This document shows positions 1 through 14,122 of a DNA stretch of 14,810 bases, piece by piece. The translations under genes were made by a program, and so were the position numbers. This stretch comes from Candidatus Heimdallarchaeota archaeon. GTDB taxonomy: Archaea; Asgardarchaeota; Heimdallarchaeia; Heimdallarchaeales; Heimdallarchaeaceae. The stretch spans positions 1 to 14,810 of the forward strand of contig JAEOSZ010000134.1 of NCBI GenBank assembly GCA_016840095.1, given 5' to 3'. Numbering within the stretch: position 1 is the first letter of the stretch; each line of letters opens with the position of its first letter. A model generated the notes under the pieces. That model saw only the letters and a program-made list of their open reading frames with translations. It had not been told where the DNA came from and did no database searches.

Positions 1-283
1 CAATTGCTCCTATGTTTCGGTAGAGCAGTATTAAAAGTATTAAACCTATAATTGTCTCTGCTGCAGCCATTGCTATAATGAACAATGTTGCTACTAATCC
101 TGTTTGATCAAACGGTGCGTTTGACATCGAGAACACGACTAGATTGAGCATTGCAGCATTTAATATCAATTCAGTACCGATTAGAATTCTAATCATACTT
201 CTTCTAGTAAAAATACCATAGAGTCCTATGGCTACAATAATGATTGATAGATATAGAGTCCAGTCAACTGGTAGCATTGCCAT
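1..283 (-). CDS. nuoK: NADH-quinone oxidoreductase (complex I-like) subunit K / 4L, runs off the window's left edge
   Basis: Not in the ORF track. Manual translation from ATG at 283: MAMLPVDWTLYLSIIIVAIGLYGIFTRRSMIRILIGTELILNAAMLNLVVFS...LFIIAMAAAETIIGLILLILLYRNIGAI. Three hydrophobic helices with the NuoK motifs GLYGIFTRR, ELILNA and AAAE..IGL. The ATG overlaps the nuoJ stop (TAATG). Confidence 0.93.
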   Translation of the reverse strand, partial: MAMLPVDWTLYLSIIIVAIGLYGIFTRRSMIRILIGTELILNAAMLNLVVFSMSNAPFDQTGLVATLFIIAMAAAETIIGLILLILLYRNIGAI

Positions 284-852
284 TAGTTAACTACCTCCTG
301 CACTTCTTCCTTAGGCTCTTCAGTTTTTTTCTTTCTTTCTCTCATCAGTGCAACTCCACCAATTAGAGCTGTTGCAAGAAGTAAACCTATTCCTAAGAAT
401 ACAATTTCATATTGTTCAATCATGAATTTGTAAATATTGAAATGATCTCCACTTGAATATGGGTAGTCTGATAAGACTGGTCCATTCCAATTGTAGAGAG
501 ATATCAACACAATCATAATTGCTGCGATTACAAGTACCAGAAAGATACTTGCTAACCTTGTTTTTACTGTAGATCTTGATATTTGTTCCTCACCAGTAGT
601 CTGTCTTCGTGTTAGCATCACTGCGAACAGTACGATAACAGATACGGCTCCCGCATATACAGCCAGTTGAAACATCGCAACATAACCTGCATTGAATAAA
701 AGAAACATTCCTCCGATTGCTATTGTAAAAATATCAAAAAAGAATATAGCAACGACCACTTCCTTAGATTCCAACGCCAAAATAGCACTTGCGACTATTA
801 AAACTGCCATAATGATCCAGTCAATAAGATAGATATTTACCATAATCATCAC
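283..852 (-). CDS. nuoJ: NADH-quinone oxidoreductase (complex I-like) subunit J / 6; probable start ATG at 843
   Basis: Five TM segments, NuoJ signature LFNAGYVAMFQLAVYAGAVSVIVLFAVML and C-terminal LLLATALIGGVAL; translationally coupled to nuoK. Confidence 0.92.
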   Translation of the reverse strand: MMIMVNIYLIDWIIMAVLIVASAILALESKEVVVAIFFFDIFTIAIGGMFLLFNAGYVAMFQLAVYAGAVSVIVLFAVMLTRRQTTGEEQISRSTVKTRLASIFLVLVIAAIMIVLISLYNWNGPVLSDYPYSSGDHFNIYKFMIEQYEIVFLGIGLLLATALIGGVALMRERKKKTEEPKEEVQEVVN

Positions 853-1124: not shown

Positions 1125-1133
1125 TTTTATATA
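1125..1133 (+). promoter_or_regulatory. Putative TATA box for the GDPD gene
   Basis: TTTTATATA ending about 28 nt before ATG 1162, a spacing that fits a leaderless or short-leader archaeal transcript. Confidence 0.45.
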
Positions 1134-1146
1134 GGTATGAGAGAAG

Positions 1147-2682
1147 ATGTATTTGGTAAACATGGAAGATCATTTACATGGAAAGAAATGGATATTATTA
1201 TTTTCTCTTGTCTTCTTAGCTGATTTATTTCTAGAAGCACTTTTCTTCTTTCTAAAACCATTGCGAGTTGAATTTAATGATCAACTTGCTGGAATGATTG
1301 GATTTCACACTAATTTCTTTCTTCTTATTATGCTTCTCTTCTTAATTCCACTTGTTTATTCTGGATTTTTCATTATCAAGTATGCTTCAAAAATTAAGAA
1401 GGAACATGAAATTAAACCATCTCTTGCTAATAAAATTATAATTACGCTACTATTTATTGTTATAGTGGCTTTATTAATTGCATTAGTTATCGCATTTGGA
1501 GATAATGCAGTAATTATTCTATATGTGTTGGAATATTATCTTCCTTTCATCTTGATGGTATTGATAATTTCGTCTTTGTTACTACTCTATGCATTCACAG
1601 ATGAGCTTCTTGTTCTACTTAAGAAACCAACAGCAAAGACATTTTATTCGCAACTTAAGAGATACATACCTTTAGTTGGAACTTTCCTATTTTTCTCTTG
1701 GTTACTGATCATGCCTTTGGTTTTCCAACCAGTTTATGTTTTGAGAGGAGAACTGCCACCTAAACCATTGATTATTGCACACAGGGGAGGTGCTAGATAT
1801 GCACCTGAGAATACTATTGCAGCTGCGATGTATGTTAATCAAATTGACGCTGCTGGTTGGGAATTTGATGTTCAAATAAGTAATGATGGAATACCTTTTC
1901 TCATGCATGATGGAACATTAGAAAGAACAACAAACGTTTCTGAAGAATTTCCAGCAAGAGCTGAAGACCCAGCAAGTTCATTTAACATCTCAGATTTGAA
2001 GCAATTGAATGCGGGTGAATGGTTTTTAGAAAGAGATCCGTACAAATTAATAGCAAAAGGTGAAGTTCCATCTAATCTAATGACTGTTTATCGAAATGCC
2101 TCTATTCCTACTTTGGAAGAAGCTATGATTTATTCTAAAGCTGCAGGTTTGCTAGTAGATGTTGATTTCAAACCTCCTCCTGATACTCATCCATTTTATG
2201 ATCAATATTTCAATATCTGTCTAAGTGTGTTAATTGCTGCTGATTATGCAAATAATACTTGGGTAACTTCTTACAATCGTGAATGGTTAAATTTGACTCA
2301 ATCTCTAGCTCCAACAATGACCACAGCACTTTCTTTACGTTTCCCTGATAAGATATCAGTAGAAGAATTTCAAGCCACAGGTTATGATATGCTGAATTCT
2401 CCACACGAAAGAGCCAATAAGCTTCTAAGGGATTATAATGAGAATAATGTTACAATAAATGTATGGACAGTCAACATGGCTTCCAGATTTCAGCAGCTTT
2501 GGGCTTTAGGCGTTTCATCTGTAACTACTGATGAACCTATAGTCTATCTCAGGATAGAAGATCCTGTACTAATAATTACTCAGAGAACATATGTTACCGT
2601 TTGGGTTGTTAGTTATCTGCTTGCAATTGCTGTGGTTCTTTTTGTTAAGAAATATAGTATGGAAAAGAAAAAAATGCGTTAA
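1147..2682 (+). CDS. Six-transmembrane glycerophosphodiester phosphodiesterase, GDE2/GDE3/GDE6-like architecture; start may be ATG 1162
   Basis: GDPD catalytic motifs IIAHRGG, APENT, WEFDV, PFLMHDGTLERTTN, IPTLEE, VWTVN, GVSSVTTD. Five N-terminal TM helices and one C-terminal TM helix followed by a basic tail (KKYSMEKKKMR). Confidence 0.92.
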   Translation: MYLVNMEDHLHGKKWILLFSLVFLADLFLEALFFFLKPLRVEFNDQLAGMIGFHTNFFLLIMLLFLIPLVYSGFFIIKYASKIKKEHEIKPSLANKIIITLLFIVIVALLIALVIAFGDNAVIILYVLEYYLPFILMVLIISSLLLLYAFTDELLVLLKKPTAKTFYSQLKRYIPLVGTFLFFSWLLIMPLVFQPVYVLRGELPPKPLIIAHRGGARYAPENTIAAAMYVNQIDAAGWEFDVQISNDGIPFLMHDGTLERTTNVSEEFPARAEDPASSFNISDLKQLNAGEWFLERDPYKLIAKGEVPSNLMTVYRNASIPTLEEAMIYSKAAGLLVDVDFKPPPDTHPFYDQYFNICLSVLIAADYANNTWVTSYNREWLNLTQSLAPTMTTALSLRFPDKISVEEFQATGYDMLNSPHERANKLLRDYNENNVTINVWTVNMASRFQQLWALGVSSVTTDEPIVYLRIEDPVLIITQRTYVTVWVVSYLLAIAVVLFVKKYSMEKKKMR

Positions 2683-2782: not shown

Positions 2783-4255
2783 TTGGCAACAAATGATGAG
2801 TCTGATATAAAATTTCTGGATGAGAGATTACCACTGAAATCAAAATTTGCATATGGTTTTACAAATGCAGCTAATGGAATGCTAAGCGGTTTAGCTATTA
2901 GTGGAGCTTTAACTCTTTTCTATAATGTAAAACTTGGTTTAAGTGAAGAGCTAATTGCGATTGTTTGGATAGTATTTGCTGTATGGAATGCATTGAATGA
3001 TCCTTTATTTGGAATACTCCAAGAAAGAACTAACACAAGGATAGGAAGAAGAATACCATATCTTCGATTTGGAGCACCGATTTATGTATTAACGTTTATC
3101 ATATGTTGGTATCCATTTATGGGTAATTCTCAAATGGCATTATTTTGGAATATGCTTTTAGTTCTATTCCTCGTTGATTCACTCTATACAATGATAGGGT
3201 TGATAACATATACACTTCCTGCAGAAATGACTTTAACACAAGAAGGAAGATCTAACCTATCTGTTTTCTCTATTTATCTTGGAGCAATAGGTTTAATCGT
3301 AGCAATGATTATCCCTCTTATACTCTTAGATGATACTCCAGGTGTTATACACCCTTTCTTTAAACCAGCAATGATTATTGTGGGGGTTGTAGCAGGAAGT
3401 ATAATGTTTGCTGCAAGTTTCTTTTTAGTAGAAAATGAATATGCAAGAACAGAAGAACCCTTAGGATTCTTTAAATCTATTGTTGAAACTTTTAAGAATA
3501 GAGAATTTGTTATCTTTGAGGCTAGTAATTTCTTCTACATTTTAGCTTATACAACACTTACTGGTTCTATCTACTATTTTGTTCCTTATGTTTTGGGGTA
3601 TTCAGGTTTTATGGCATCAGTACCACTGGTTCTGGTTTTTGCAATGATTTTCGGTTTCTCTGCACTAGCGAATCACTTCGTGAAAAAATATGGACTTAAG
3701 AAAGTATATATCGTTGGATTAATTGCTTCAAGTGTAATCTTCTTGCTACTTTTAGCGGTAGGTAGGTTTGAAATTCCTTCCCTTATAGTCCTAGCAGTTC
3801 TAGGTATGGGTTTTGCACCGGTTGCATTAATCAATGGTCCACTAATGAGTGATGTTATTGATAATGATGAACTTCTTACTGGAAAGCGTAGAGAAACAAC
3901 CTATGCAGGTATGAATGCGTTGGTTACTAAACCTTCAATCTCTATTGCTAATGCAATCTTTCTAGCTATAATCAGTGCTTTTGGTTTTGATAATGAAATT
4001 GCTACTCAAACTCCTCAAGCACAATTTGGTATAATCTTAGGATTTACTCTAGTTCCAGCCATATGTTTGATACTAGCTGCAATTGCTTTAAAATGGTATA
4101 AGTTAGATGGTCCTGAATGGTTTGAGAAGAAGAAAGAACTAAATGCTATTCATCTTCAAAAAGAAAAAGCATACATTGCTCAACTTCAAAAAGAAGGTAA
4201 AATATCAGCTACATATCAGAAACTGTACAAAGATGAAACGGATTTAACAAAGTAG
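2783..4255 (+). CDS. MFS transporter, glycoside-pentoside-hexuronide (MelB/GPH, MFS_2) family
   Basis: About 12 TM helices; motifs WNALNDPLFG...TRIGRRIPY and SDVIDNDELLTGKRRETTYAG. TTG start preceded by AAGGAG at 2765-2770. Confidence 0.9.
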   Translation: MATNDESDIKFLDERLPLKSKFAYGFTNAANGMLSGLAISGALTLFYNVKLGLSEELIAIVWIVFAVWNALNDPLFGILQERTNTRIGRRIPYLRFGAPIYVLTFIICWYPFMGNSQMALFWNMLLVLFLVDSLYTMIGLITYTLPAEMTLTQEGRSNLSVFSIYLGAIGLIVAMIIPLILLDDTPGVIHPFFKPAMIIVGVVAGSIMFAASFFLVENEYARTEEPLGFFKSIVETFKNREFVIFEASNFFYILAYTTLTGSIYYFVPYVLGYSGFMASVPLVLVFAMIFGFSALANHFVKKYGLKKVYIVGLIASSVIFLLLLAVGRFEIPSLIVLAVLGMGFAPVALINGPLMSDVIDNDELLTGKRRETTYAGMNALVTKPSISIANAIFLAIISAFGFDNEIATQTPQAQFGIILGFTLVPAICLILAAIALKWYKLDGPEWFEKKKELNAIHLQKEKAYIAQLQKEGKISATYQKLYKDETDLTK

Positions 4256-5465: not shown

Positions 5466-7025
5466 TTAAATCTCTTTTGTTTTCAAGTACTGTGCTAAAT
5501 CTATAGGTTCATTGTTAATCTTGATTTGAACACTATCTCTCTCAAGGTATATCTCGTAGATGTTTTTATTATGTGGTAATTCTCCAATACATCTGAATCT
5601 AATCTTAATATGTTCTGCCAAATTCTTGATATCAAACACGGTCATAAGTCTCTTACTTTTATGTTTGAAGTGTATTTCTGGATCTAAGCCAAGAACTGTG
5701 CTATCATCAAAAATGTTGTCGATGTTTAAAACACCATCTTTCAAACTTAAATCAGTTTTACAGAATTCATTAACAAATTGCCTATACTGATTTGCTCTTG
5801 ATATTCTAGAAAATTCCTCAATTTCATCAAAAAGTACAAGAAGTTCTGAATAATTCAAGAAATCTCTGATTTGATACCCATCACTTGTATGATCTGCCAT
5901 AGCTTGGAGTATTTTCATTTTAGAATTTATTGCTGAAATATTGAGATTATCTAATTCTATGCTTTCAGGTCTACTGTAAGTTATAGGAAGATTGGAAAAA
6001 GATTTGAGCGTCTTCATTAGTAAGTATGCACTCATAATCCCATGAGTATAATTTTCAAAATCATTTGAATATCTTAGGATTGCAGACATATCTTTCTCCA
6101 TTGATCCTTGTATTGTGTACATCCTTCGCATGATATCAGCTTGTTTCTCGGTTAAATTGTTTAGATTTTTTCGAATATCTAAAAACTCTTCTTCAGTTGG
6201 TTCTTCGAGATTGAAAAGGTAAGATGTGAATCTATTCATCTTATCTATTAAATCTTGAACATCCTTTCTCTCATCAAAAGAGAAATCTTCGATGTCTAGA
6301 TTGAAACTGATATTTAGTGAAAGGATTTCAAGAAGATTCTCTATGTAGAACTGTTGAACATTCTCAAAGTGAAAATCAAATTCTCCAAACTTTGTGATTG
6401 AGAAAAAGGGAAGAACTTGACGAATTGATTTATTGATTTTTGCAATCTTTTTTAGAGGATAACCAAGATCATGAGTGAGTGCAATGACACATCTTACAGA
6501 ATCTTCATTCTTCAATATTTCAGCAACTCTTGCTAATAGAAATGTTAATTCTCCAAAAATTTCTGGAACTTCCAGAGCTCCATAGTATTCATATAGAAAG
6601 GCAGCCCCTTTGAGGTGTCTATTTACATTCTGAAAAAGAAGTTCAAATTCAGACTGATGATGAAGATACTCTCCTAAGAAGTAGACCCACAAGCAATGGA
6701 GAGTATGATCTCGATAAAATGAATCAGATGCAAAGATTAATTCTTCAAATCTAACAAACTCTTCAAAATACTTAAACAATACATCATATCCTTGTTTGTC
6801 AGGATCAATGAATTCCATTGATGCTTCAAAAAGTATTTTCCATAGATCTTTTGCTACTTGAATTTTATCATGGATTTCTTCACTTTTTTGAAGTAGTGAA
6901 ATTAACTCCTTGATCGTCTTCTTAGCTTCTTCCTTACCTATTAGAAACCTAATATTGTCTTTATCAAGTAATTCTATATAGAAATCCATTACTACTTTCT
7001 CGTTAATCAGAGTCATTGAAATCAC
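5466..7025 (-). CDS. HD-superfamily metal-dependent phosphohydrolase, function unknown; probable start ATG 7016
   Basis: Ordered HD-fold ligands YRDHTLH, LTHDLGYP, THGIMSA, ADH and FDEIEE. A GTGAT RBS-like motif precedes ATG 7016. Confidence 0.75.
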   Translation of the reverse strand: MISMTLINEKVVMDFYIELLDKDNIRFLIGKEEAKKTIKELISLLQKSEEIHDKIQVAKDLWKILFEASMEFIDPDKQGYDVLFKYFEEFVRFEELIFASDSFYRDHTLHCLWVYFLGEYLHHQSEFELLFQNVNRHLKGAAFLYEYYGALEVPEIFGELTFLLARVAEILKNEDSVRCVIALTHDLGYPLKKIAKINKSIRQVLPFFSITKFGEFDFHFENVQQFYIENLLEILSLNISFNLDIEDFSFDERKDVQDLIDKMNRFTSYLFNLEEPTEEEFLDIRKNLNNLTEKQADIMRRMYTIQGSMEKDMSAILRYSNDFENYTHGIMSAYLLMKTLKSFSNLPITYSRPESIELDNLNISAINSKMKILQAMADHTSDGYQIRDFLNYSELLVLFDEIEEFSRISRANQYRQFVNEFCKTDLSLKDGVLNIDNIFDDSTVLGLDPEIHFKHKSKRLMTVFDIKNLAEHIKIRFRCIGELPHNKNIYEIYLERDSVQIKINNEPIDLAQYLKTKEI

Positions 7026-9817: not shown

Positions 9818-9921
9818 AGATTACACCTATCTAATAAAAAATGATAGTTTTACTAGATTATAACTGTTTTTGGTAAAATGAAGGATATAGTTAAAGTGAT
9901 TAGCTCAATGATTTTGCATAC

Positions 9922-9930
9922 ATATATATA
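9922..9930 (+). promoter_or_regulatory. Putative TATA box for the flavoprotein pair
   Basis: ATATATATA ending about 22 nt before ATG 9953. Confidence 0.35.
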
Positions 9931-9952
9931 CGAAAATCAAAAAATATTGTTC

Positions 9953-10531
9953 ATGGATTATTTGATTTTGAATGGAATGCATGAAAGTGATTCCTTTATT
10001 CAAGAAATTAATGATACAATAATAGAACAACTCACTAACCAGAGTCTTCAAGGTGAATCACTAACTCTATTCGAAAAGGATATCAAACCTTGTTTAGGTT
10101 GTTTCAAATGTTGGGTTGAAACTCCGGGAATTTGTGTAATAAATGATTATGGTCATGAATCAGCTAAGAAGATGATTCAATCTGATTACATGGTTTATTT
10201 GACTCCAATTAGATATGGAGGATATTCAGTTGAATTGAAAAAAGCTCTTGATAGATCATTACCTCTTCTTTCTCCTTTCTTTAGAATTTTTCATGAAGAG
10301 ATTCATCATGAACAAAGATATGACAAATATCCTAACATGATAGTTTATGGAATTCTTGATGAACCAAATAAAGAACAAGAAGAGATTTTTACAGATTTAA
10401 CCAAAAGAAATTCTCTGAATAACTTCGCGGAAAAATATTCCTGTCAGATAATTTACAAAAATGATGACAAACAAACGATTCTTGAAAAAATCCAAAATGG
10501 TTTAGAGATTGTAGGTGATAAAAATGTCTAA
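9953..10531 (+). CDS. Iron-sulfur flavoprotein (Isf) / NADPH-dependent FMN reductase family flavodoxin-fold protein; ORF track starts at 9878
   Basis: IKPCLGCFKCWVETPGICVIND four-Cys motif and TPIRYGGYS..LKKALDR. The flavodoxin first strand (MDYLILNG) begins at ATG 9953. Confidence 0.85.
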   Translation: MDYLILNGMHESDSFIQEINDTIIEQLTNQSLQGESLTLFEKDIKPCLGCFKCWVETPGICVINDYGHESAKKMIQSDYMVYLTPIRYGGYSVELKKALDRSLPLLSPFFRIFHEEIHHEQRYDKYPNMIVYGILDEPNKEQEEIFTDLTKRNSLNNFAEKYSCQIIYKNDDKQTILEKIQNGLEIVGDKNV

Positions 10532-11249
10532 GCAAGTTACTTTTCTAATGTGTAGTCCAAGAGGAGATAATAGTGCATCTCACTCATTAGGAAGTTATGT
10601 AGCAGAGCAATTCAAAGAAAAAGAGTATCAAGTGGATCACATCCCTGTCTATAAGACTTTGAGGAAACAGGATTTAGTTGATGAGATGATAGCATCAATA
10701 GACAGAAGCGATATAATACTTCTATCAACACCATTGTATATTGACTGTGCACCTGCGAATACAATCAGAATGATGGACATTATAACTGAAACTGTTCACA
10801 CTGGAAAAATCACCAAAAAGAAGAGACTTCTGTTTGCAATTGTTTGTGCAGGATTTCTGGAATACTATCACAATTTGCTTGCTCTTAGAATCTATGAACA
10901 GTTTGCTAAAACAAACAGTTTCACTTGGGCTGGAGGTTTACCTATAGGAGCTGCTGGAAATTATACATTGTATGGAATTACAGAACTTATAGAGAAGATA
11001 GAACCACTGCCTAAAGAAGATATAAGACATAAAATCTATGCAGAGCCAGCAAGAGCTCTTGTAGAAGTTATCAAGAATTCAGTTGAATATCTATCCCAAG
11101 GAAAAGCCGTCCCTAAAAAGGAACTAGAGAAACTGGAAGTTGTTTCAATGCCTTTAGAAATGTATGTTGAAGGTGGAAACAAAAACTGGATAGATTGGGC
11201 AGAGAGAATCAACACTGCTGACAAACTGAGAGATAAACCATATGAATAG
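10524..11249 (+). CDS. Flavodoxin-fold NAD(P)H-dependent oxidoreductase without the Fe-S Cys motif; ORF track starts at 10515
   Basis: CSPRGDNSAS FMN-phosphate loop, STPLYID and CAGFLE. GGTGA RBS at 10514-10518; ATG overlaps the upstream gene end by 8 nt. Confidence 0.85.
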   Translation: MSKQVTFLMCSPRGDNSASHSLGSYVAEQFKEKEYQVDHIPVYKTLRKQDLVDEMIASIDRSDIILLSTPLYIDCAPANTIRMMDIITETVHTGKITKKKRLLFAIVCAGFLEYYHNLLALRIYEQFAKTNSFTWAGGLPIGAAGNYTLYGITELIEKIEPLPKEDIRHKIYAEPARALVEVIKNSVEYLSQGKAVPKKELEKLEVVSMPLEMYVEGGNKNWIDWAERINTADKLRDKPYE

Positions 11250-11303: not shown

Positions 11304-12245
11304 ATGTCTAGTGTGAAAACAAAAGTTGATGAATCTTCAGTAAAAGAGCTTCTGAATAAAAAGTACAATTCTCCGATAACAGATTTCAAGTTCATTAAAG
11401 GAGGACAATTTTCTCAACCTTTTTCGTATAAAGTTGAGGGAAAAAACTATGTGATTCGTTTTAGACGAGACATTGAGTCATTTCAAAAAGAAGAAGCAAT
11501 TTACGATAAACTTTCTCTAGAAGATCCTTCAATACCTCTACCTAAGCTACATGAAATTGGAACATTTGAGAATTCAGAAGATAAAAATCTGTACTATTCA
11601 ATAAATGATAAGTGTGAAGGGAAAATAGGATATACTCTTCCTCTTGGTGTCATTAAAGGATTAAGAACATCTCTAATAGAATATTTATACAAGATAAATC
11701 AGATTGATATCACTGAAACAAAGAATTTTGGTGATTGGCTTAAATTTAATGAAGCATCGCATTCTTCTTGGAGAGAGTTCTTAGTTGAATATACTCAAAC
11801 AAAATTGGATTATTTGCTAAATTACTTCAAAGATAATGCTGAAGAAATAAAATATGTAGAAACACTAGGAGAGAGAATAAGAGAATTATTTGAATATTGT
11901 CCTGAAGAGAAATATCTAATTCATGGAGATTATGGACTGCATAATGTAATTGCTACAGAAGAAGGTGAAATTACAGGTATTCTAGATTGGGAACTATCGA
12001 AATTTGGAGATTTTGTTTATGATGTTTCTTGGCTAGATTATTGGGGTAAATATGACAACCAGACCTACAAAGAAAATTATCTGGAATATTATGAAACACA
12101 GAAAGGGGAAACAATAGTGAATTATTCAGAGAGAACCCTCTGCTATATTCTTTGTGTAAGTCTGCATATGGCTTGGTTTTATTGCTTATCTGGACAAATT
12201 GATGGATATTATAGTGGAAAGAAACACCTTGAACAATTTTCCTAG
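11304..12245 (+). CDS. Aminoglycoside phosphotransferase / choline kinase (APH) family small-molecule kinase
   Basis: IKGGQFS loop, YVIRF, IPLPK, Brenner motif LIHGDYGLHNVI, and GILDWELSKFGDFVYD. Confidence 0.9.
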   Translation: MSSVKTKVDESSVKELLNKKYNSPITDFKFIKGGQFSQPFSYKVEGKNYVIRFRRDIESFQKEEAIYDKLSLEDPSIPLPKLHEIGTFENSEDKNLYYSINDKCEGKIGYTLPLGVIKGLRTSLIEYLYKINQIDITETKNFGDWLKFNEASHSSWREFLVEYTQTKLDYLLNYFKDNAEEIKYVETLGERIRELFEYCPEEKYLIHGDYGLHNVIATEEGEITGILDWELSKFGDFVYDVSWLDYWGKYDNQTYKENYLEYYETQKGETIVNYSERTLCYILCVSLHMAWFYCLSGQIDGYYSGKKHLEQFS

Positions 12246-12287: not shown

Positions 12288-13007
12288 GTGGTATTATTGA
12301 CAAAAGTTACTGTAATCATTGGTAGTCCTAAAATGGAGAAAGGCAATACTAGTTTTGTTTTAGCACCATTTATTAAAGGAATGGAAGAAGCAGGTGCTTC
12401 AGTAGAATTAATTTTTGCAAAGAAATTAAAAATCCGTCCTTGCATTGGTTGCTTTAAGTGTTGGAGAGAAACAATTGGAGAATGTTTTCAACAAGATGAT
12501 ATGGAAGAACTTCTTACTAAACTTAGAGAAACTAATATCCTTGTTATTGCGACTCCTACCTATGCTCCTCTTCCTGGAGAATTGCAGAATATTCTAAATA
12601 GACTGGTTCCTCTAGTTGAACCCATACTAGAATTTAGAGAAGGGAGAACAAGAGCTAAACCTCATGATGAAGTGAAAATTACCAAAATTATTGGTTTCAT
12701 TGTTGGAGCATGGTGGGAATTAGCCAATCTAGATGCAGTCGCTAAAATTGTTGAAGAATTAACTGAACTTTTTTCATTAGAATTAACTGATGCAGTTCGT
12801 CGACCTCATGCAAGCTTACTAAGACATGAAACTAATTTGAATAAATCTATTCTTCAGAGATTGGAAAAAGCTGGTTATGAATTTATTACTGAAAGAAAAA
12901 TAGACAAGAGTGATCTCGAGTTTATCAGACAACCTCTTGCGAAACAGGAGGATTATCTGGCTCGTGGTACTCAAAATTATCTGAAGAGGAAGGCAGAACA
13001 CAAGTAG
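12288..13007 (+). CDS. Iron-sulfur flavoprotein (Isf) / flavodoxin family protein; probable start TTG 12297
   Basis: IIGSPKMEKGNT, IRPCIGCFKCWRETIGECFQQDDM and ATPTY. AGGTGG RBS precedes TTG 12297. Confidence 0.88.
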   Translation: MVLLTKVTVIIGSPKMEKGNTSFVLAPFIKGMEEAGASVELIFAKKLKIRPCIGCFKCWRETIGECFQQDDMEELLTKLRETNILVIATPTYAPLPGELQNILNRLVPLVEPILEFREGRTRAKPHDEVKITKIIGFIVGAWWELANLDAVAKIVEELTELFSLELTDAVRRPHASLLRHETNLNKSILQRLEKAGYEFITERKIDKSDLEFIRQPLAKQEDYLARGTQNYLKRKAEHK

Positions 13008-13122: not shown

Positions 13123-13216
13123 TTGACTATCTCATAGCTACTAATCCTTTAGTTTTTTCATAAATTGAGACCAACTCTTTAATATCATGAATTTATGGAG
13201 TAATAGGTTAAAACTA

Positions 13217-14122
13217 ATGAATCAGAATTACAGTGATCCCGAACGAATACCCTCTGGGATTGAAGGTTTGGATATTCTCTTAAGAGGAGGTATAATAAAA
13301 AATTCAGTCAATACATATGTAGGCTGTAGTGGATCTGGAAAAACTATTGCTGCTTTGGCTTTCCTTTATGAAGGTCTTCTCAAAGGAGATCATACATTGT
13401 TTTTATCATTTAAAGAAACTCCATCTAAAATGATAAAGGAAGCTAAATCTATAGGACTTGACATCTCAGAGCTATCAACTGATCCTGAAGATTTGATACA
13501 CTTAGTTGAAAATGAAAAAATCGTTGAATTTATGACAAATATACTTCCAGCTTTAGCACAAAAGCTGAAACACAGAAATATAAAACACACAAGAATCATA
13601 TTGGATTCTTTGGATGGTGTTCTGTGGGAATTCCCCTCAGAAAAGGAGCAGAGAAAGGTTTTAACGAAGATATATCTCCATCTAAGTTCACTTGGTACAG
13701 TAGTTCAAACAGTCGAGGAAACAGATGCTAGAATCCCTATTTATCTTTCGGATAATGTCATTCGTTTTCAAAATAAGATTCAAGGTGAACAAAAAAACCA
13801 AAGATTGTGTAGTATTCTGAAATCGAGAGGAACGAATCATATTGAAGGTGAATTTCAACTAGAACTAAAATCTGAATCTGGGATGATAATTAATGTTGAA
13901 GAAGATGAAGAATTACTCTTTGATAATAAAGAGAAATTTTACTCAGATCTCATGAAAAAAATCAAAAAATTATCGAAGAGTAAAGATCCTAAGAAAAGAG
14001 TAATTGCTCAAATAGCTAAAAATCTATTAGGCGATCGAGAAACATTGAAAGATAGAAGTAAGACTGAATTGGACATGGTAGAACTTATAACAGACAAAAG
14101 GATTTTAGAATCGGATAGTTGA
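13217..14122 (+). CDS. Single-domain KaiC/RAD55/GvpD-type RecA-superfamily ATPase with a charged C-terminal extension; ORF track starts at 13187
   Basis: RIPSGIEGLDILLRGG, Walker A GCSGSGKT, SFKET, Walker B IILDSL, TVEE, YLSDNVIRF and ILKSRGTNH. Confidence 0.9.
   Translation: MNQNYSDPERIPSGIEGLDILLRGGIIKNSVNTYVGCSGSGKTIAALAFLYEGLLKGDHTLFLSFKETPSKMIKEAKSIGLDISELSTDPEDLIHLVENEKIVEFMTNILPALAQKLKHRNIKHTRIILDSLDGVLWEFPSEKEQRKVLTKIYLHLSSLGTVVQTVEETDARIPIYLSDNVIRFQNKIQGEQKNQRLCSILKSRGTNHIEGEFQLELKSESGMIINVEEDEELLFDNKEKFYSDLMKKIKKLSKSKDPKKRVIAQIAKNLLGDRETLKDRSKTELDMVELITDKRILESDS

Follow-up and report, generated by a model that had tools for sequence, protein, structure and literature searches.

A probable membrane-integral glycerophosphodiesterase of the GDE2/GDE3/GDE6 type in a Heimdallarchaeial Asgard archaeon

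The open reading frame at positions 1147-2682 of the forward strand, in a window of 14,810 nucleotides (the whole stretch of DNA that was analysed), encodes a protein of 511 amino acids from a Heimdallarchaeial Asgard archaeon. With a probability of roughly 0.6, the protein is a metal-dependent, membrane-integral glycerophosphodiester phosphodiesterase belonging to the GDE2/GDE3/GDE6 (GDPD5/GDPD2/GDPD4) family. The whole polypeptide, including its transmembrane (TM) bundle, is homologous to the eukaryotic enzymes; it is full-length and, to judge from its residues, apparently catalytically competent. GDE2, GDE3 and GDE6 have been described as animal enzymes, with functions in the differentiation of neurons and osteoblasts and in the release of GPI-anchored proteins; as ecto-glycerophosphodiesterases, they act on GPI anchors, GroPIns or lyso-PI. 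In a literature search we found no paper connecting Asgard or other archaea with GDE2/3/6, with GDPD5 or with 'glycerophosphodiester phosphodiesterase', and no phylogeny of the GDE2/3/6 family that includes bacteria.

Membrane topology and catalytic site

As the earlier note on this DNA had stated, five TM helices precede the GDPD domain, and a sixth helix and a basic tail follow it (Table 1). The position of the domain between TM5 and TM6 is seen both in the hydropathy profile, which peaks at residues 16-34, 59-77, 97-115, 132-150 and 174-192 and, near the C terminus, at 482-500, and in the AF2 model (pLDDT 92.3, pTM 0.88), whose helices span residues 13-35, 57-86, 93-130, 132-159, 166-192 and 479-510, with a short helix carrying the EFN motif in the first outer loop. 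The in-frame ATG at 1162 (M6) matches the N termini of relatives better and may therefore be the true start.

Table 1. Features of the six-TM glycerophosphodiesterase gene and its downstream neighbour (positions in the window).
Feature	Position	Strand	Remarks
CDS, six-TM GDE2/3/6-type glycerophosphodiesterase	1147..2682	+	511 aa; possible alternative start ATG 1162
TM1	1183..1251	+	residues 13-35; begins with family-conserved W15
Short helix of outer loop	1255..1299	+	residues 37-51; E42-F43-N44 = EFN of bat GDPD5 in alignment
TM2	1315..1404	+	helix 57-86; followed by K-rich cytoplasmic loop 78-96
TM3	1423..1536	+	helix 93-130; hydrophobic core 97-115
TM4	1540..1623	+	helix 132-159, core 132-150; followed by basic cytoplasmic loop 159-172
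TM5	1642..1722	+	helix 166-192; P190 (its end) and P195 nearly invariant
LPPKP linker and extracytoplasmic GDPD TIM barrel	1753..2571	+	residues 203-475
Catalytic H212/R213	1780-1785	+	
Metal ligand E239	1861-1863	+	
Metal ligand D241	1867-1869	+	
Second His, H254	1906-1908	+	
Metal ligand D340	2164-2166	+	
TM6	2581..2646	+	residues 479-500; preceded by conserved P473 and Y482..W486 lead-in
Short basic cytoplasmic tail	2647..2679	+	KKYSMEKKKMR
GPH/MFS_2 transporter	2783..4255	+	co-directional; 100 bp downstream of GDE gene

Lysine and arginine residues are distributed very unevenly over the two sides of the membrane, with 2 in the N terminus, 6 in loop 2 (residues 78-96), 5 in loop 4 (159-172) and 6 in the tail, a total of 19, versus 2 in loop 1 (36-56) and 0 in loop 3 (118-131), a total of 2. 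By the positive-inside rule, this distribution predicts that both termini lie inside and the GDPD domain outside. The predicted ectodomain contains six N-X-S/T sequons where 2.5 are expected (shuffle p 0.03), and the three soluble GDPDs of the same genome carry one or two each. Charge distribution and sequon enrichment thus agree with the proposal that the catalytic domain faces outside.

The bundle itself is loosely conserved, P190 and P195 alone being nearly invariant across the three clades described below. When the TM region was modelled by itself, pLDDT was 86 and TM3 and TM4 merged into one helix. The best structural match of the bundle (Z 10.7, to designed helical bundles) is within the noise level for helical proteins, and no fold relative can therefore be named. 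Structure searches with the full model (Foldseek, VIA) returned soluble GDPD barrels only, and neither sequence nor structure searches found a solved structure of any six-TM member.

The catalytic domain is the sole Pfam domain of the protein (GDPD, residues 212-464, E 5e-26) and superposes on the GDPD of T. tengcongensis (2pz0) with Z 29.0 and an rmsd of 2.4 A over 240 residues; the value for B. subtilis GlpQ (5t91) is Z 27.7. Across Asgard, Anaerolineae and vertebrate members, H212-R213, E239/D241 and H254-D255 are invariant and D340 is nearly so, which upholds the earlier description of an intact metal-binding ExD motif and of two catalytic histidines. The catalytic site maps to H17, R18, E44, D46, H59 and E119 of 2pz0, such that the third metal ligand is Asp in the archaeal protein and Glu in the soluble enzyme. 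In bat GDPD5, the residue aligned with H212 is H233; mutation of His233 inactivates GDE2, and the equivalent residue in GDE3 is H229 (PMC5576486).

Homology to the animal enzymes and separation from other GDPDs

In the published description of the animal subfamily, the GDPD domain lies between the fifth and the sixth of six TM helices (PMC5576486), and the archaeal protein has the same layout, with a predicted ectodomain. By BLASTP, residues 15-509 align end to end with residues 36-513 of skate GDPD5 (26% identity, E 9e-55), and bat GDPD5 is 30% identical over residues 15-295. Matches to vertebrate GDPD5/2/4 have E values of 1e-46 to 1e-29, with query coverage of up to 97-98%, and those to GDE1 have E values of 1e-10 or weaker.

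With the TM region (residues 1-200) as a single query sequence, phmmer retrieved Asgard-type members only and no vertebrate match, so that a profile-profile comparison was needed. In hhalign, the TM region alone matched that of vertebrate GDE2/3/6 over 179 colinear columns (Prob 94.8, E 5e-8), or with E 3.8e-7 when the last 20 columns were removed, whereas the controls (reversed, column-shuffled and PF10110) gave E 0.28-0.81. The earlier note had named a TM region without homology to GDE2/3/6 as a result that would speak against its reading; this comparison and the full-length BLASTP alignment show the opposite.

The likeness extends to short motifs, comprising LPPKP before HRG, EFN in loop 1, RTTNV..FP..AS, LNAG.WF, HP(F/Y), LRDY, W..GV.SVT and the Y..W that leads into TM6. 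Several of these had been named in the earlier note (EFN, TTNV..FP..PAS, LNAG.WFL and LRDY) and are matched in the computed alignments with GDPD5. The catalytic His, Arg and metal ligands are identical, the TM bundle is homologous, and the proteins fall into one maximum-likelihood (ML) clade. Full-length homology, a shared clade and the same predicted topology support the reading of the protein as a counterpart of the six-TM GDE2/3/6 enzymes. It differs from the animal proteins in its cytoplasmic tails of about 14 and 11 amino acids, where the latter have long regulated termini, in being without their Cys-rich N-terminal segment, and in the lipids of its host, which are presumably archaeal. 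It forms a sister or cousin lineage to animal GDE2/3/6 and is not nested among the animal paralogues.

Other families share parts of this architecture. Soluble and secreted GDPDs of the GlpQ/UgpQ type have the same TIM barrel and catalytic residues (phmmer E 1e-13 to 1e-14), but they are without the TM bundle and the subfamily motifs and branch outside the six-TM clade. The bacterial PF10110 (GPDPase_memb) proteins also combine a multi-pass membrane region with a GDPD domain, but all of their TM helices precede the GDPD domain, their catalytic domains branch far off, and their membrane domain is unrelated to the archaeal TM region (hhalign E 0.28, Prob 0.2). A PF10110-type identity is ruled out by this comparison and by the Pfam assignment, which gives GDPD only. 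The concern that the protein might nest in this widespread bacterial group is likewise settled by the tree, which places it in the six-TM clade.

Host, distribution and phylogeny

The nearest relatives, at 74-75% identity, come from Heimdallarchaeota/Heimdallarchaeaceae MAGs, and the source genome has the same genus code as Heimdallarchaeota YT1_029 (matching contig coordinates). The MAG contains no archaeal SSU rRNA, and the host was therefore assigned from the names of homologues and from these coordinate matches. A mis-binned bacterial or eukaryotic contig, or a recent transfer that is uninformative on Asgard biology, nevertheless had to be considered. The MAG is 89% complete with an estimated contamination of 7.8%, the gene is patchily distributed within the phylum, and a sister-like clade occurs in Anaerolineae, which share anoxic sediment habitats with Asgard archaea. 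Against such an origin, the GC content of the contig (32.3%) agrees with that of the genome (33.2 +/- 1.0%), in tetranucleotide distance it does not stand out from the other contigs, and contigs of three other samples have the identical gene order. Moreover, homologues are present in 63 Asgard genomes, single-contig ones included, and the Asgard sequences form a deep, diverse clade of their own. An artefact or foreign gene is therefore largely refuted and extremely improbable, and the earlier assignment of the contig to an archaeon, probably of the Asgard group, is retained.

In Asgard archaea, the six-TM GDE gene is accessory, not core. It was found in 63 of 400 genomes, in 21 of 85 genera and in 13 of the 24 genomes of its own genus, and among the carriers are two genomes assembled as one contig each, of 4.3 and 6.0 Mb. 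A restriction to Asgard archaea among prokaryotes is ruled out by full-length members in at least 14 Anaerolineae/Chloroflexota species genomes, a survey based on a single peptide pattern and possibly incomplete; one 'Nanopelagicaceae' record proved, by its coordinates, to be an Asgard genome. The family is rare in Anaerolineae, since among 301 sampled genomes of the class the only full-length match was the seed genome itself. The Anaerolineae proteins (e.g., loci L014-L027) have the same architecture and belong to the same family, with 28-36% identity to the archaeal protein, but they are longer (about 490-680 aa) and carry 0-2 sequons, versus 1-9 in Asgard members. They are unnamed in the literature; JGI labels some of them 'glycerophosphoinositol inositolphosphodiesterase'. 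The eukaryotic branch is wider than animals and comprises Metazoa, Chromosphaera (Ichthyosporea), the Archamoebae Pelomyxa and Mastigamoeba, one EukProt transcriptome, and uncultured protists represented by metagenomic contigs with eukaryote-like neighbours.

The phylogeny proposed as a check on the original reading places the protein with eukaryotic GDE2/3/6. The six-TM family is monophyletic, with aLRT/UFBoot 95.9/97 under LG+F+G4 (90 sequences) and aLRT 100 under LG+C20+F+G4 PMSF (49 sequences), and its three branches are the Asgard archaea, a restricted set of Anaerolineae and the eukaryotes. In the best ML trees, the eukaryotes group with the Anaerolineae proteins, and the Asgard clade lies farther off (92.9/97 with 90 sequences; aLRT 94 with 49 sequences and C20). 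The constraint that joins eukaryotes and Asgard archaea is only 8.3 lnL units worse and is not rejected (p-AU 0.157). Compositional differences are strong, and 49 of 90 rows fail the composition test. That the eukaryotic GDE2/3/6 enzymes stem from an Asgard gene, with the Anaerolineae copies as a lateral offshoot and the archaeal enzyme acting on inositol-phospholipids or GPI-like glycolipids of the Asgard envelope, is on present evidence an unlikely scenario. If Asgard descent were true, cell-surface cleavage of lipid headgroups or lipid anchors would be older than eukaryotes.

Proposed function and significance

In the predicted topology, a bundle of six helices, five before the catalytic domain and one after it, carries the GDPD TIM barrel on the outside of the membrane, and both short termini are cytoplasmic. 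We propose that the conserved bundle sets the active site at the bilayer surface. With an intact site, consisting of the acid-base pair His212/His254, Arg213 and the metal ligands E239/D241/D340, the enzyme would, as its eukaryotic relatives do, cleave a phosphodiester at the cell surface, in a lipid headgroup that is embedded in the membrane or close to it. The candidate substrate is a lysophospholipid, an inositol-phospholipid or a glycolipid resembling GPI, or else a glycerophospho-alcohol that has been freed from lipids of these kinds. The genome contains two myo-inositol-1-phosphate synthase genes, which plausibly provide for substrate supply. In this genus, the products may enter the cell via the adjacent GPH/MFSD2A-like transporter.

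Several points weigh against this proposal. The backbone of archaeal lipids is sn-glycerol-1-phosphate, whereas the GDPDs that have been characterised cleave sn-glycero-3-phosphodiesters, and the loosely conserved bundle is also compatible with mere anchoring. The coupling to the transporter is weak as well. The best PDB match of the transporter is the lysophosphatidylcholine symporter MFSD2A (E 9.5e-22; MelB, 8e-10), but its adjacency to the GDE gene is confined to relatives of about 75% identity and lost at 51-54% identity, and the transporter is far commoner in Asgard archaea than the GDE gene. A general GDE-MFS_2 operon is thereby ruled out, and the transporter is a possible, unproven functional partner.

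The transporter gene directly downstream would also suit a nutrient scavenger that hydrolyses soluble glycerophosphodiesters (GroPCho, GroPEtn, GroPIns, GroPGro) outside the cell in the manner of GlpQ, yielding phosphate, glycerol phosphate or alcohols, with the bundle as an anchor only. Such a role is possible but rather unlikely. It agrees with the tight superposition of the catalytic domain on soluble GDPDs, with the nearest relatives outside the six-TM family, which are GDPDs of about 275-330 aa, either secreted proteins or lipoproteins, and with an Anaerolineae locus (L018) where the gene lies among YdjC, MFS_2, SulP and PfkB genes of uptake and catabolism; GDE2 and GDE3, too, hydrolyse soluble GroPCho and GroPIns. 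However, one TM helix or a lipobox suffices as an anchor, and the outgroup uses exactly that, whereas the colinear five-plus-one bundle with W15, EFN, P190, P195 and Y482..W486 is kept in Archaea, Bacteria and Eukarya, which argues for a role beyond anchoring. In addition, the genome already encodes three soluble GDPDs.

Release of surface proteins from a GPI-like inositol-phospholipid anchor, as by animal GDE2 and GDE3, is a further alternative and appears improbable. It draws on the homology to enzymes that cleave GPI anchors (PMC5576486) and on genomic context: besides the inositol-phosphate synthase genes, the genome holds four PIG-L-family genes and one weak Peptidase_C13-like ORF, and NosD/beta-helix genes, which would encode surface-type proteins, flank the gene in relatives of 51-54% identity. 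Yet the Peptidase_C13 match is weak, extending over 76 profile positions with 40.8 bits, and deacetylases of the PIG-L family take part in many pathways. The family also occurs in Anaerolineae, and GPI-anchor synthesis is not known from bacteria.

The protein bears on several fields. The prokaryotic orthologues are compact (about 505 aa), without regulatory tails and confidently modelled, and they would be convenient for structural and mechanistic work, in particular on the way in which lipid substrates are presented by the TM bundle. With regard to eukaryogenesis, the family represents one more membrane-lipid enzyme common to Asgard archaea and eukaryotes; its distribution over three clades, and a tree in which two placements of the eukaryotes are compatible with the data, also show why similarity alone does not make such a protein Asgard-derived. 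For Asgard cell biology, the predicted activity suggests that enzymes remodel the outer leaflet of the membrane or lipids bound to the surface.

Topology and kinship with the animal six-TM enzymes

Hydropathy of the GDE protein reveals five hydrophobic segments N-terminal of residue 200 and one at 482-500. The AlphaFold2 model, computed from the family alignment of 37 sequences, is confident (mean pLDDT 92.3, pTM 0.88) and places helices at residues 13-35, 57-86, 93-130, 132-159 and 166-192, followed by a beta/alpha barrel (about 205-475) and a C-terminal helix at 479-510. The Pfam GDPD match covers residues 212-464 (E 5e-26), and the barrel superposes on the soluble T. tengcongensis GDPD (2pz0) over 240 residues (Z 29.0, rmsd 2.4 A). 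Lysines and arginines are concentrated at the N terminus (2), in the loops 78-96 (6) and 159-172 (5) and in the tail KKYSMEKKKMR (6), with 2 and 0 in the remaining two short loops; under the positive-inside rule this predicts cytoplasmic termini and an outward-lying GDPD domain. Hydropathy, the structural model and these counts thus agree in predicting what the earlier note had described, an outward-facing domain between five TM helices and a sixth with a basic tail.

Six N-X-S/T sequons fall in the GDPD domain, where shuffled sequences would give 2.5 (p ~0.03); the genome's three soluble GDPDs have 1-2 each. Across the family, Asgard members carry 1-9 and vertebrate members 4-9, those of Anaerolineae only 0-2; this pattern hints that in the first two lineages, whose surface proteins are N-glycosylated, the domain is exposed and possibly carries glycans. 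As for the start of the protein, an alternative in-frame ATG at 1162 gives a 506-aa product whose N terminus aligns with relatives starting M-x-x-x-KKGKKW. Together with the TATA-like TTTTATATA ahead of the ORF, this fit suggests that the shorter form may be the true product.

Searching 5.8 billion proteins for homologues turned up about 50 relatives that match at full length and measure roughly 500 aa, the named ones from MAGs of Heimdallarchaeota, Helarchaeota, Promethearchaeia and Thorarchaeota. Proteins of Anaerolineales and unnamed metagenomic proteins ranked next, ahead of vertebrate GDPD5, GDPD2 and GDPD4 (E 1e-46 to 1e-29, query coverage up to 97-98%); GDE1 (E 1e-10 or weaker) and generic GDPDs (E 1e-19 or weaker) matched far more weakly. 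In BLASTP, residues 15-509 align with residues 36-513 of skate GDPD5 (26% identity, E 9e-55) and residues 15-295 with bat GDPD5 (30% identity). The subfamily segments that the earlier note had likened to GDE2 recur in these computed alignments: EFN of the first outer loop, LPPKP..IAHRG (LGPKP..IGHRG in GDPD5), TTNVSEEFPARAEDPAS (TTNVEEQFPELARRPAS), LNAGEWFLE (LNAGQWFLK), LRDY, NVWTVN (NLYTVN), LWALGVSSVTTD (LWCAGVPSVTSD) and the P...Y..W lead into TM6.

The membrane region was compared on its own, using profiles of the N-terminal 200-odd residues of 36 Asgard-type and 8 vertebrate sequences. In hhalign, 179 columns of the two line up colinearly (Prob 94.8, E 5e-8), and the match persists when the 20 columns adjoining the catalytic domain are removed (E 3.8e-7), whereas reversed and column-shuffled profiles and the PF10110-type membrane domain gave E values of 0.28-0.81. 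Given these clean controls, the profile comparison indicates that the six-TM architecture is homologous to that of GDE2/3/6 rather than convergent, as the earlier note had proposed. By the same comparison, the membrane domain of PF10110-type bacterial GDPDs is unrelated. The archaeal protein carries every sequence and architecture hallmark of the GDE2/3/6 subfamily; unlike the animal proteins, it has very short tails and no Cys-rich N-terminal segment. Structure database searches found no solved structure of any six-TM GDE, and a structure search with the TM bundle folded alone gave no convincing fold relative. Annotation pipelines label these proteins generic GDPDs, JGI a few of them GDE3-like, and no paper in the literature searched connects the GDE2/3/6 family with prokaryotes, Asgard archaea included.

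Catalytic site, candidate substrates and the neighbouring transporter

The active-site residues H17, R18, E44, D46, H59 and E119 of 2pz0 align with H212, R213, E239, D241, H254 and D340 of the GDE protein. Among 37 Asgard, Anaerolineae and vertebrate members, H212, R213, E239, D241, H254 and D255 are invariant, including the metal-binding ExD and both histidines previously noted as intact, and D340 is nearly so; in some relatives HRC replaces HRG, with His-Arg retained. The counterpart of H212 in the alignment with bat GDPD5 is His233, and mutation of the active-site His233 in GDE2 or His229 in GDE3 abolishes activity (PMC5576486). Judged by this conservation, the enzyme looks active.

The metal-dependent GDPD site is intact and, in the predicted topology, is presented to the exterior by a conserved platform of six helices. 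If it works as GDE2/3/6 do, the enzyme would cleave a phosphodiester in a lipid headgroup that is bound to the membrane or close to it. It might instead scavenge soluble diesters, the six-helix bundle serving as an anchor; this is less likely, since one helix or a lipobox is all that anchoring would need. For cleavage of lipid headgroups, several substrates come into question. GDE2/3/6 also act on lyso-PI, GroPIns and GroPCho, and inositol lipids are plausible here because the MAG encodes two myo-inositol-1-phosphate synthases (tandem genes, G000:C30:734-2129), so that inositol phosphate can be made. GPI anchors are cleaved by GDE2/3/6 (PMC5576486); in this host, GPI anchoring is at best weakly suggested by PIG-L-family genes and a C13-like match. 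The latter concerns a 555-aa ORF (G000:C122:641-868), which matches Peptidase_C13 (legumain/GPI8-type) weakly, at 40.8 bits.

The best PDB match of the MFS_2 transporter encoded downstream is the lysophosphatidylcholine symporter MFSD2A (7oix; E 9.5e-22, vs 8e-10 for MelB). Among the relatives, those at about 75% identity alone keep the two genes adjacent; in Heimdall-type relatives at 54% (L089) and 51% (L090) the GDE gene is flanked by NosD/Beta_helix repeat genes instead, and three Anaerolineae loci have MFS_2 homologues no more than a few kb from it. The transporter is itself conserved at 55-62% identity in nearly all Asgard classes (Heimdall, Odin, Hermod, Sif, Thor, Promethearchaeota and Hodarchaeales MAGs). 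Together these observations weaken the case for a functional coupling, which is possible but tenuous; the transporter may be an MFSD2-like carrier of lipids or sugars with an Asgard-wide range.

Host and locus

The contig is archaeal, as had been assumed: the nearest proteins (74-75% identity) come from 'Candidatus Heimdallarchaeota' and 'Heimdallarchaeaceae' MAGs. Matched by contig coordinates, the genome behind a further named locus, Heimdallarchaeota YT1_029, has the genus code of the window's genome, and those behind Hel_GB_B and an 'uncultured archaeon' belong to its phylum. GC content (32.3%, vs 33.2 +/- 1.0% for the 3.44-Mb MAG) and tetranucleotide make-up are consistent with the MAG, in which no SSU rRNA was found. 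The order GDE, MFS_2, PAS histidine kinase, 519-528-aa protein, ferredoxin-domain protein and FMN reductase is conserved and was found again on contigs of three other samples.

Features of the contig around the GDE gene
Feature	Position	Strand	Remarks
NuoK-like and NuoJ (Oxidored_q3) subunit genes	2-852	-	complex I-type module at contig start, divergent from GDE gene
TATA-like TTTTATATA	1125-1133		ahead of GDE ORF
GDE CDS	1147-2682	+	third ORF, 511 residues
GPH/MFS_2 transporter	2783-4255	+	co-directional, 100 bp downstream of GDE gene
519-aa ORF	5466-7025	-	no Pfam or NCBIfam match; place beside PAS histidine kinase kept in relatives (528-546 aa in loci L086-L088)
FMN_red/flavodoxin-like paralogues (three)	9878-10531, 10515-11249, 12288-13007	+
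APH-family kinase	11304-12245		+ strand, interleaved among FMN_red paralogues
KaiC-family ATPase	13187-14122		after FMN_red paralogues
Second kinase-like ORF			beyond KaiC-family ATPase, runs off contig end

Distribution and phylogeny of the six-TM family

Surveyed with the family profile (E <= 1e-50), 63 of 400 Asgard genomes and 21 of 85 genera contain the family, including 13 of 24 genomes of the window's genus and none of six from other genera of its family; in Asgard archaea the gene is accessory and patchy. Two single-contig Asgard genomes have members (G142:C1:3229735-3231186, ~4.3 Mb; G137:C1:4295694-4296827, ~6.0 Mb). A MAG named 'Candidatus Nanopelagicaceae bacterium' (DATKTW010000045.1, G255:C45, locus L012) bears two tandem six-TM genes; contig coordinates identify it as a genome of the Asgard phylum, so the public name is probably wrong.

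Full-length bacterial members were found only in Anaerolineae/Chloroflexota (about 14 species genomes), and an even sample of 301 Anaerolineae genomes contained one, in the seed genome itself. Another 26 of the 301 encode GDPD-only proteins (~275-330 aa, some with lipobox-like signals) with 41-51% identity to the outgroup sequences used for rooting. Such proteins (L099-L108; genomes G443, G609 and others) are the nearest outgroup of the six-TM family and share with it the motif RTTNV..(F/Y)PDR.

Eukaryotic members extend beyond vertebrates to Priapulus, Owenia, Anneissia and two more animals ('GDPD5-like'), and also to the ichthyosporean Chromosphaera perkinsii, the Archamoebae Pelomyxa schiedti and Mastigamoeba balamuthi, and one EukProt transcriptome; a metagenomic contig with RRM-domain neighbours looks eukaryotic. 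Mastigamoeba (EP00727) has at least four paralogues (P0125, P0177, P0221, P0248); three members lie within ~70 kb of one scaffold (g12335, g12355, g12357), and two are far longer, at 886 and 1122 aa, and probably represent fusions or merged gene models. For the family of which the earlier note described a counterpart, 'animal' is therefore too narrow a label.

In a tree of 90 sequences and 502 columns (IQ-TREE, LG+F+G4, rooted on ten soluble GDPDs; aLRT/UFBoot) and one of 49 sequences (LG+C20+F+G4 PMSF; aLRT), the six-TM family, GDE2/3/6 included, forms one clade (95.9/97 and 100), in line with the proposed kinship. Within it, Anaerolineae (100/100; 100) and eukaryotes (98.5/99; 96) group together (92.9/97; 94) beside an Asgard clade (84.7/65; 85), to which several unnamed sequences belong by tree position only. 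Both topologies are identical, and FastTree on the catalytic domain concurs; the Asgard genomes are rich in AT, many rows do not pass the composition test and several protists have long branches. When eukaryotes are constrained to group with Asgard archaea, the log-likelihood falls by 8.3 units, and the AU test does not reject the constraint (p-AU 0.157). On balance, the trees tilt somewhat away from GDE2/3/6 having descended simply from Asgard archaea to eukaryotes.

The six-TM GDE family is thus an ambiguous case for eukaryogenesis. The putative Asgard-wide MFSD2-like transporter is worth a study of its own, and the GDE protein offers a tractable prokaryotic model for a structurally unsolved enzyme family.
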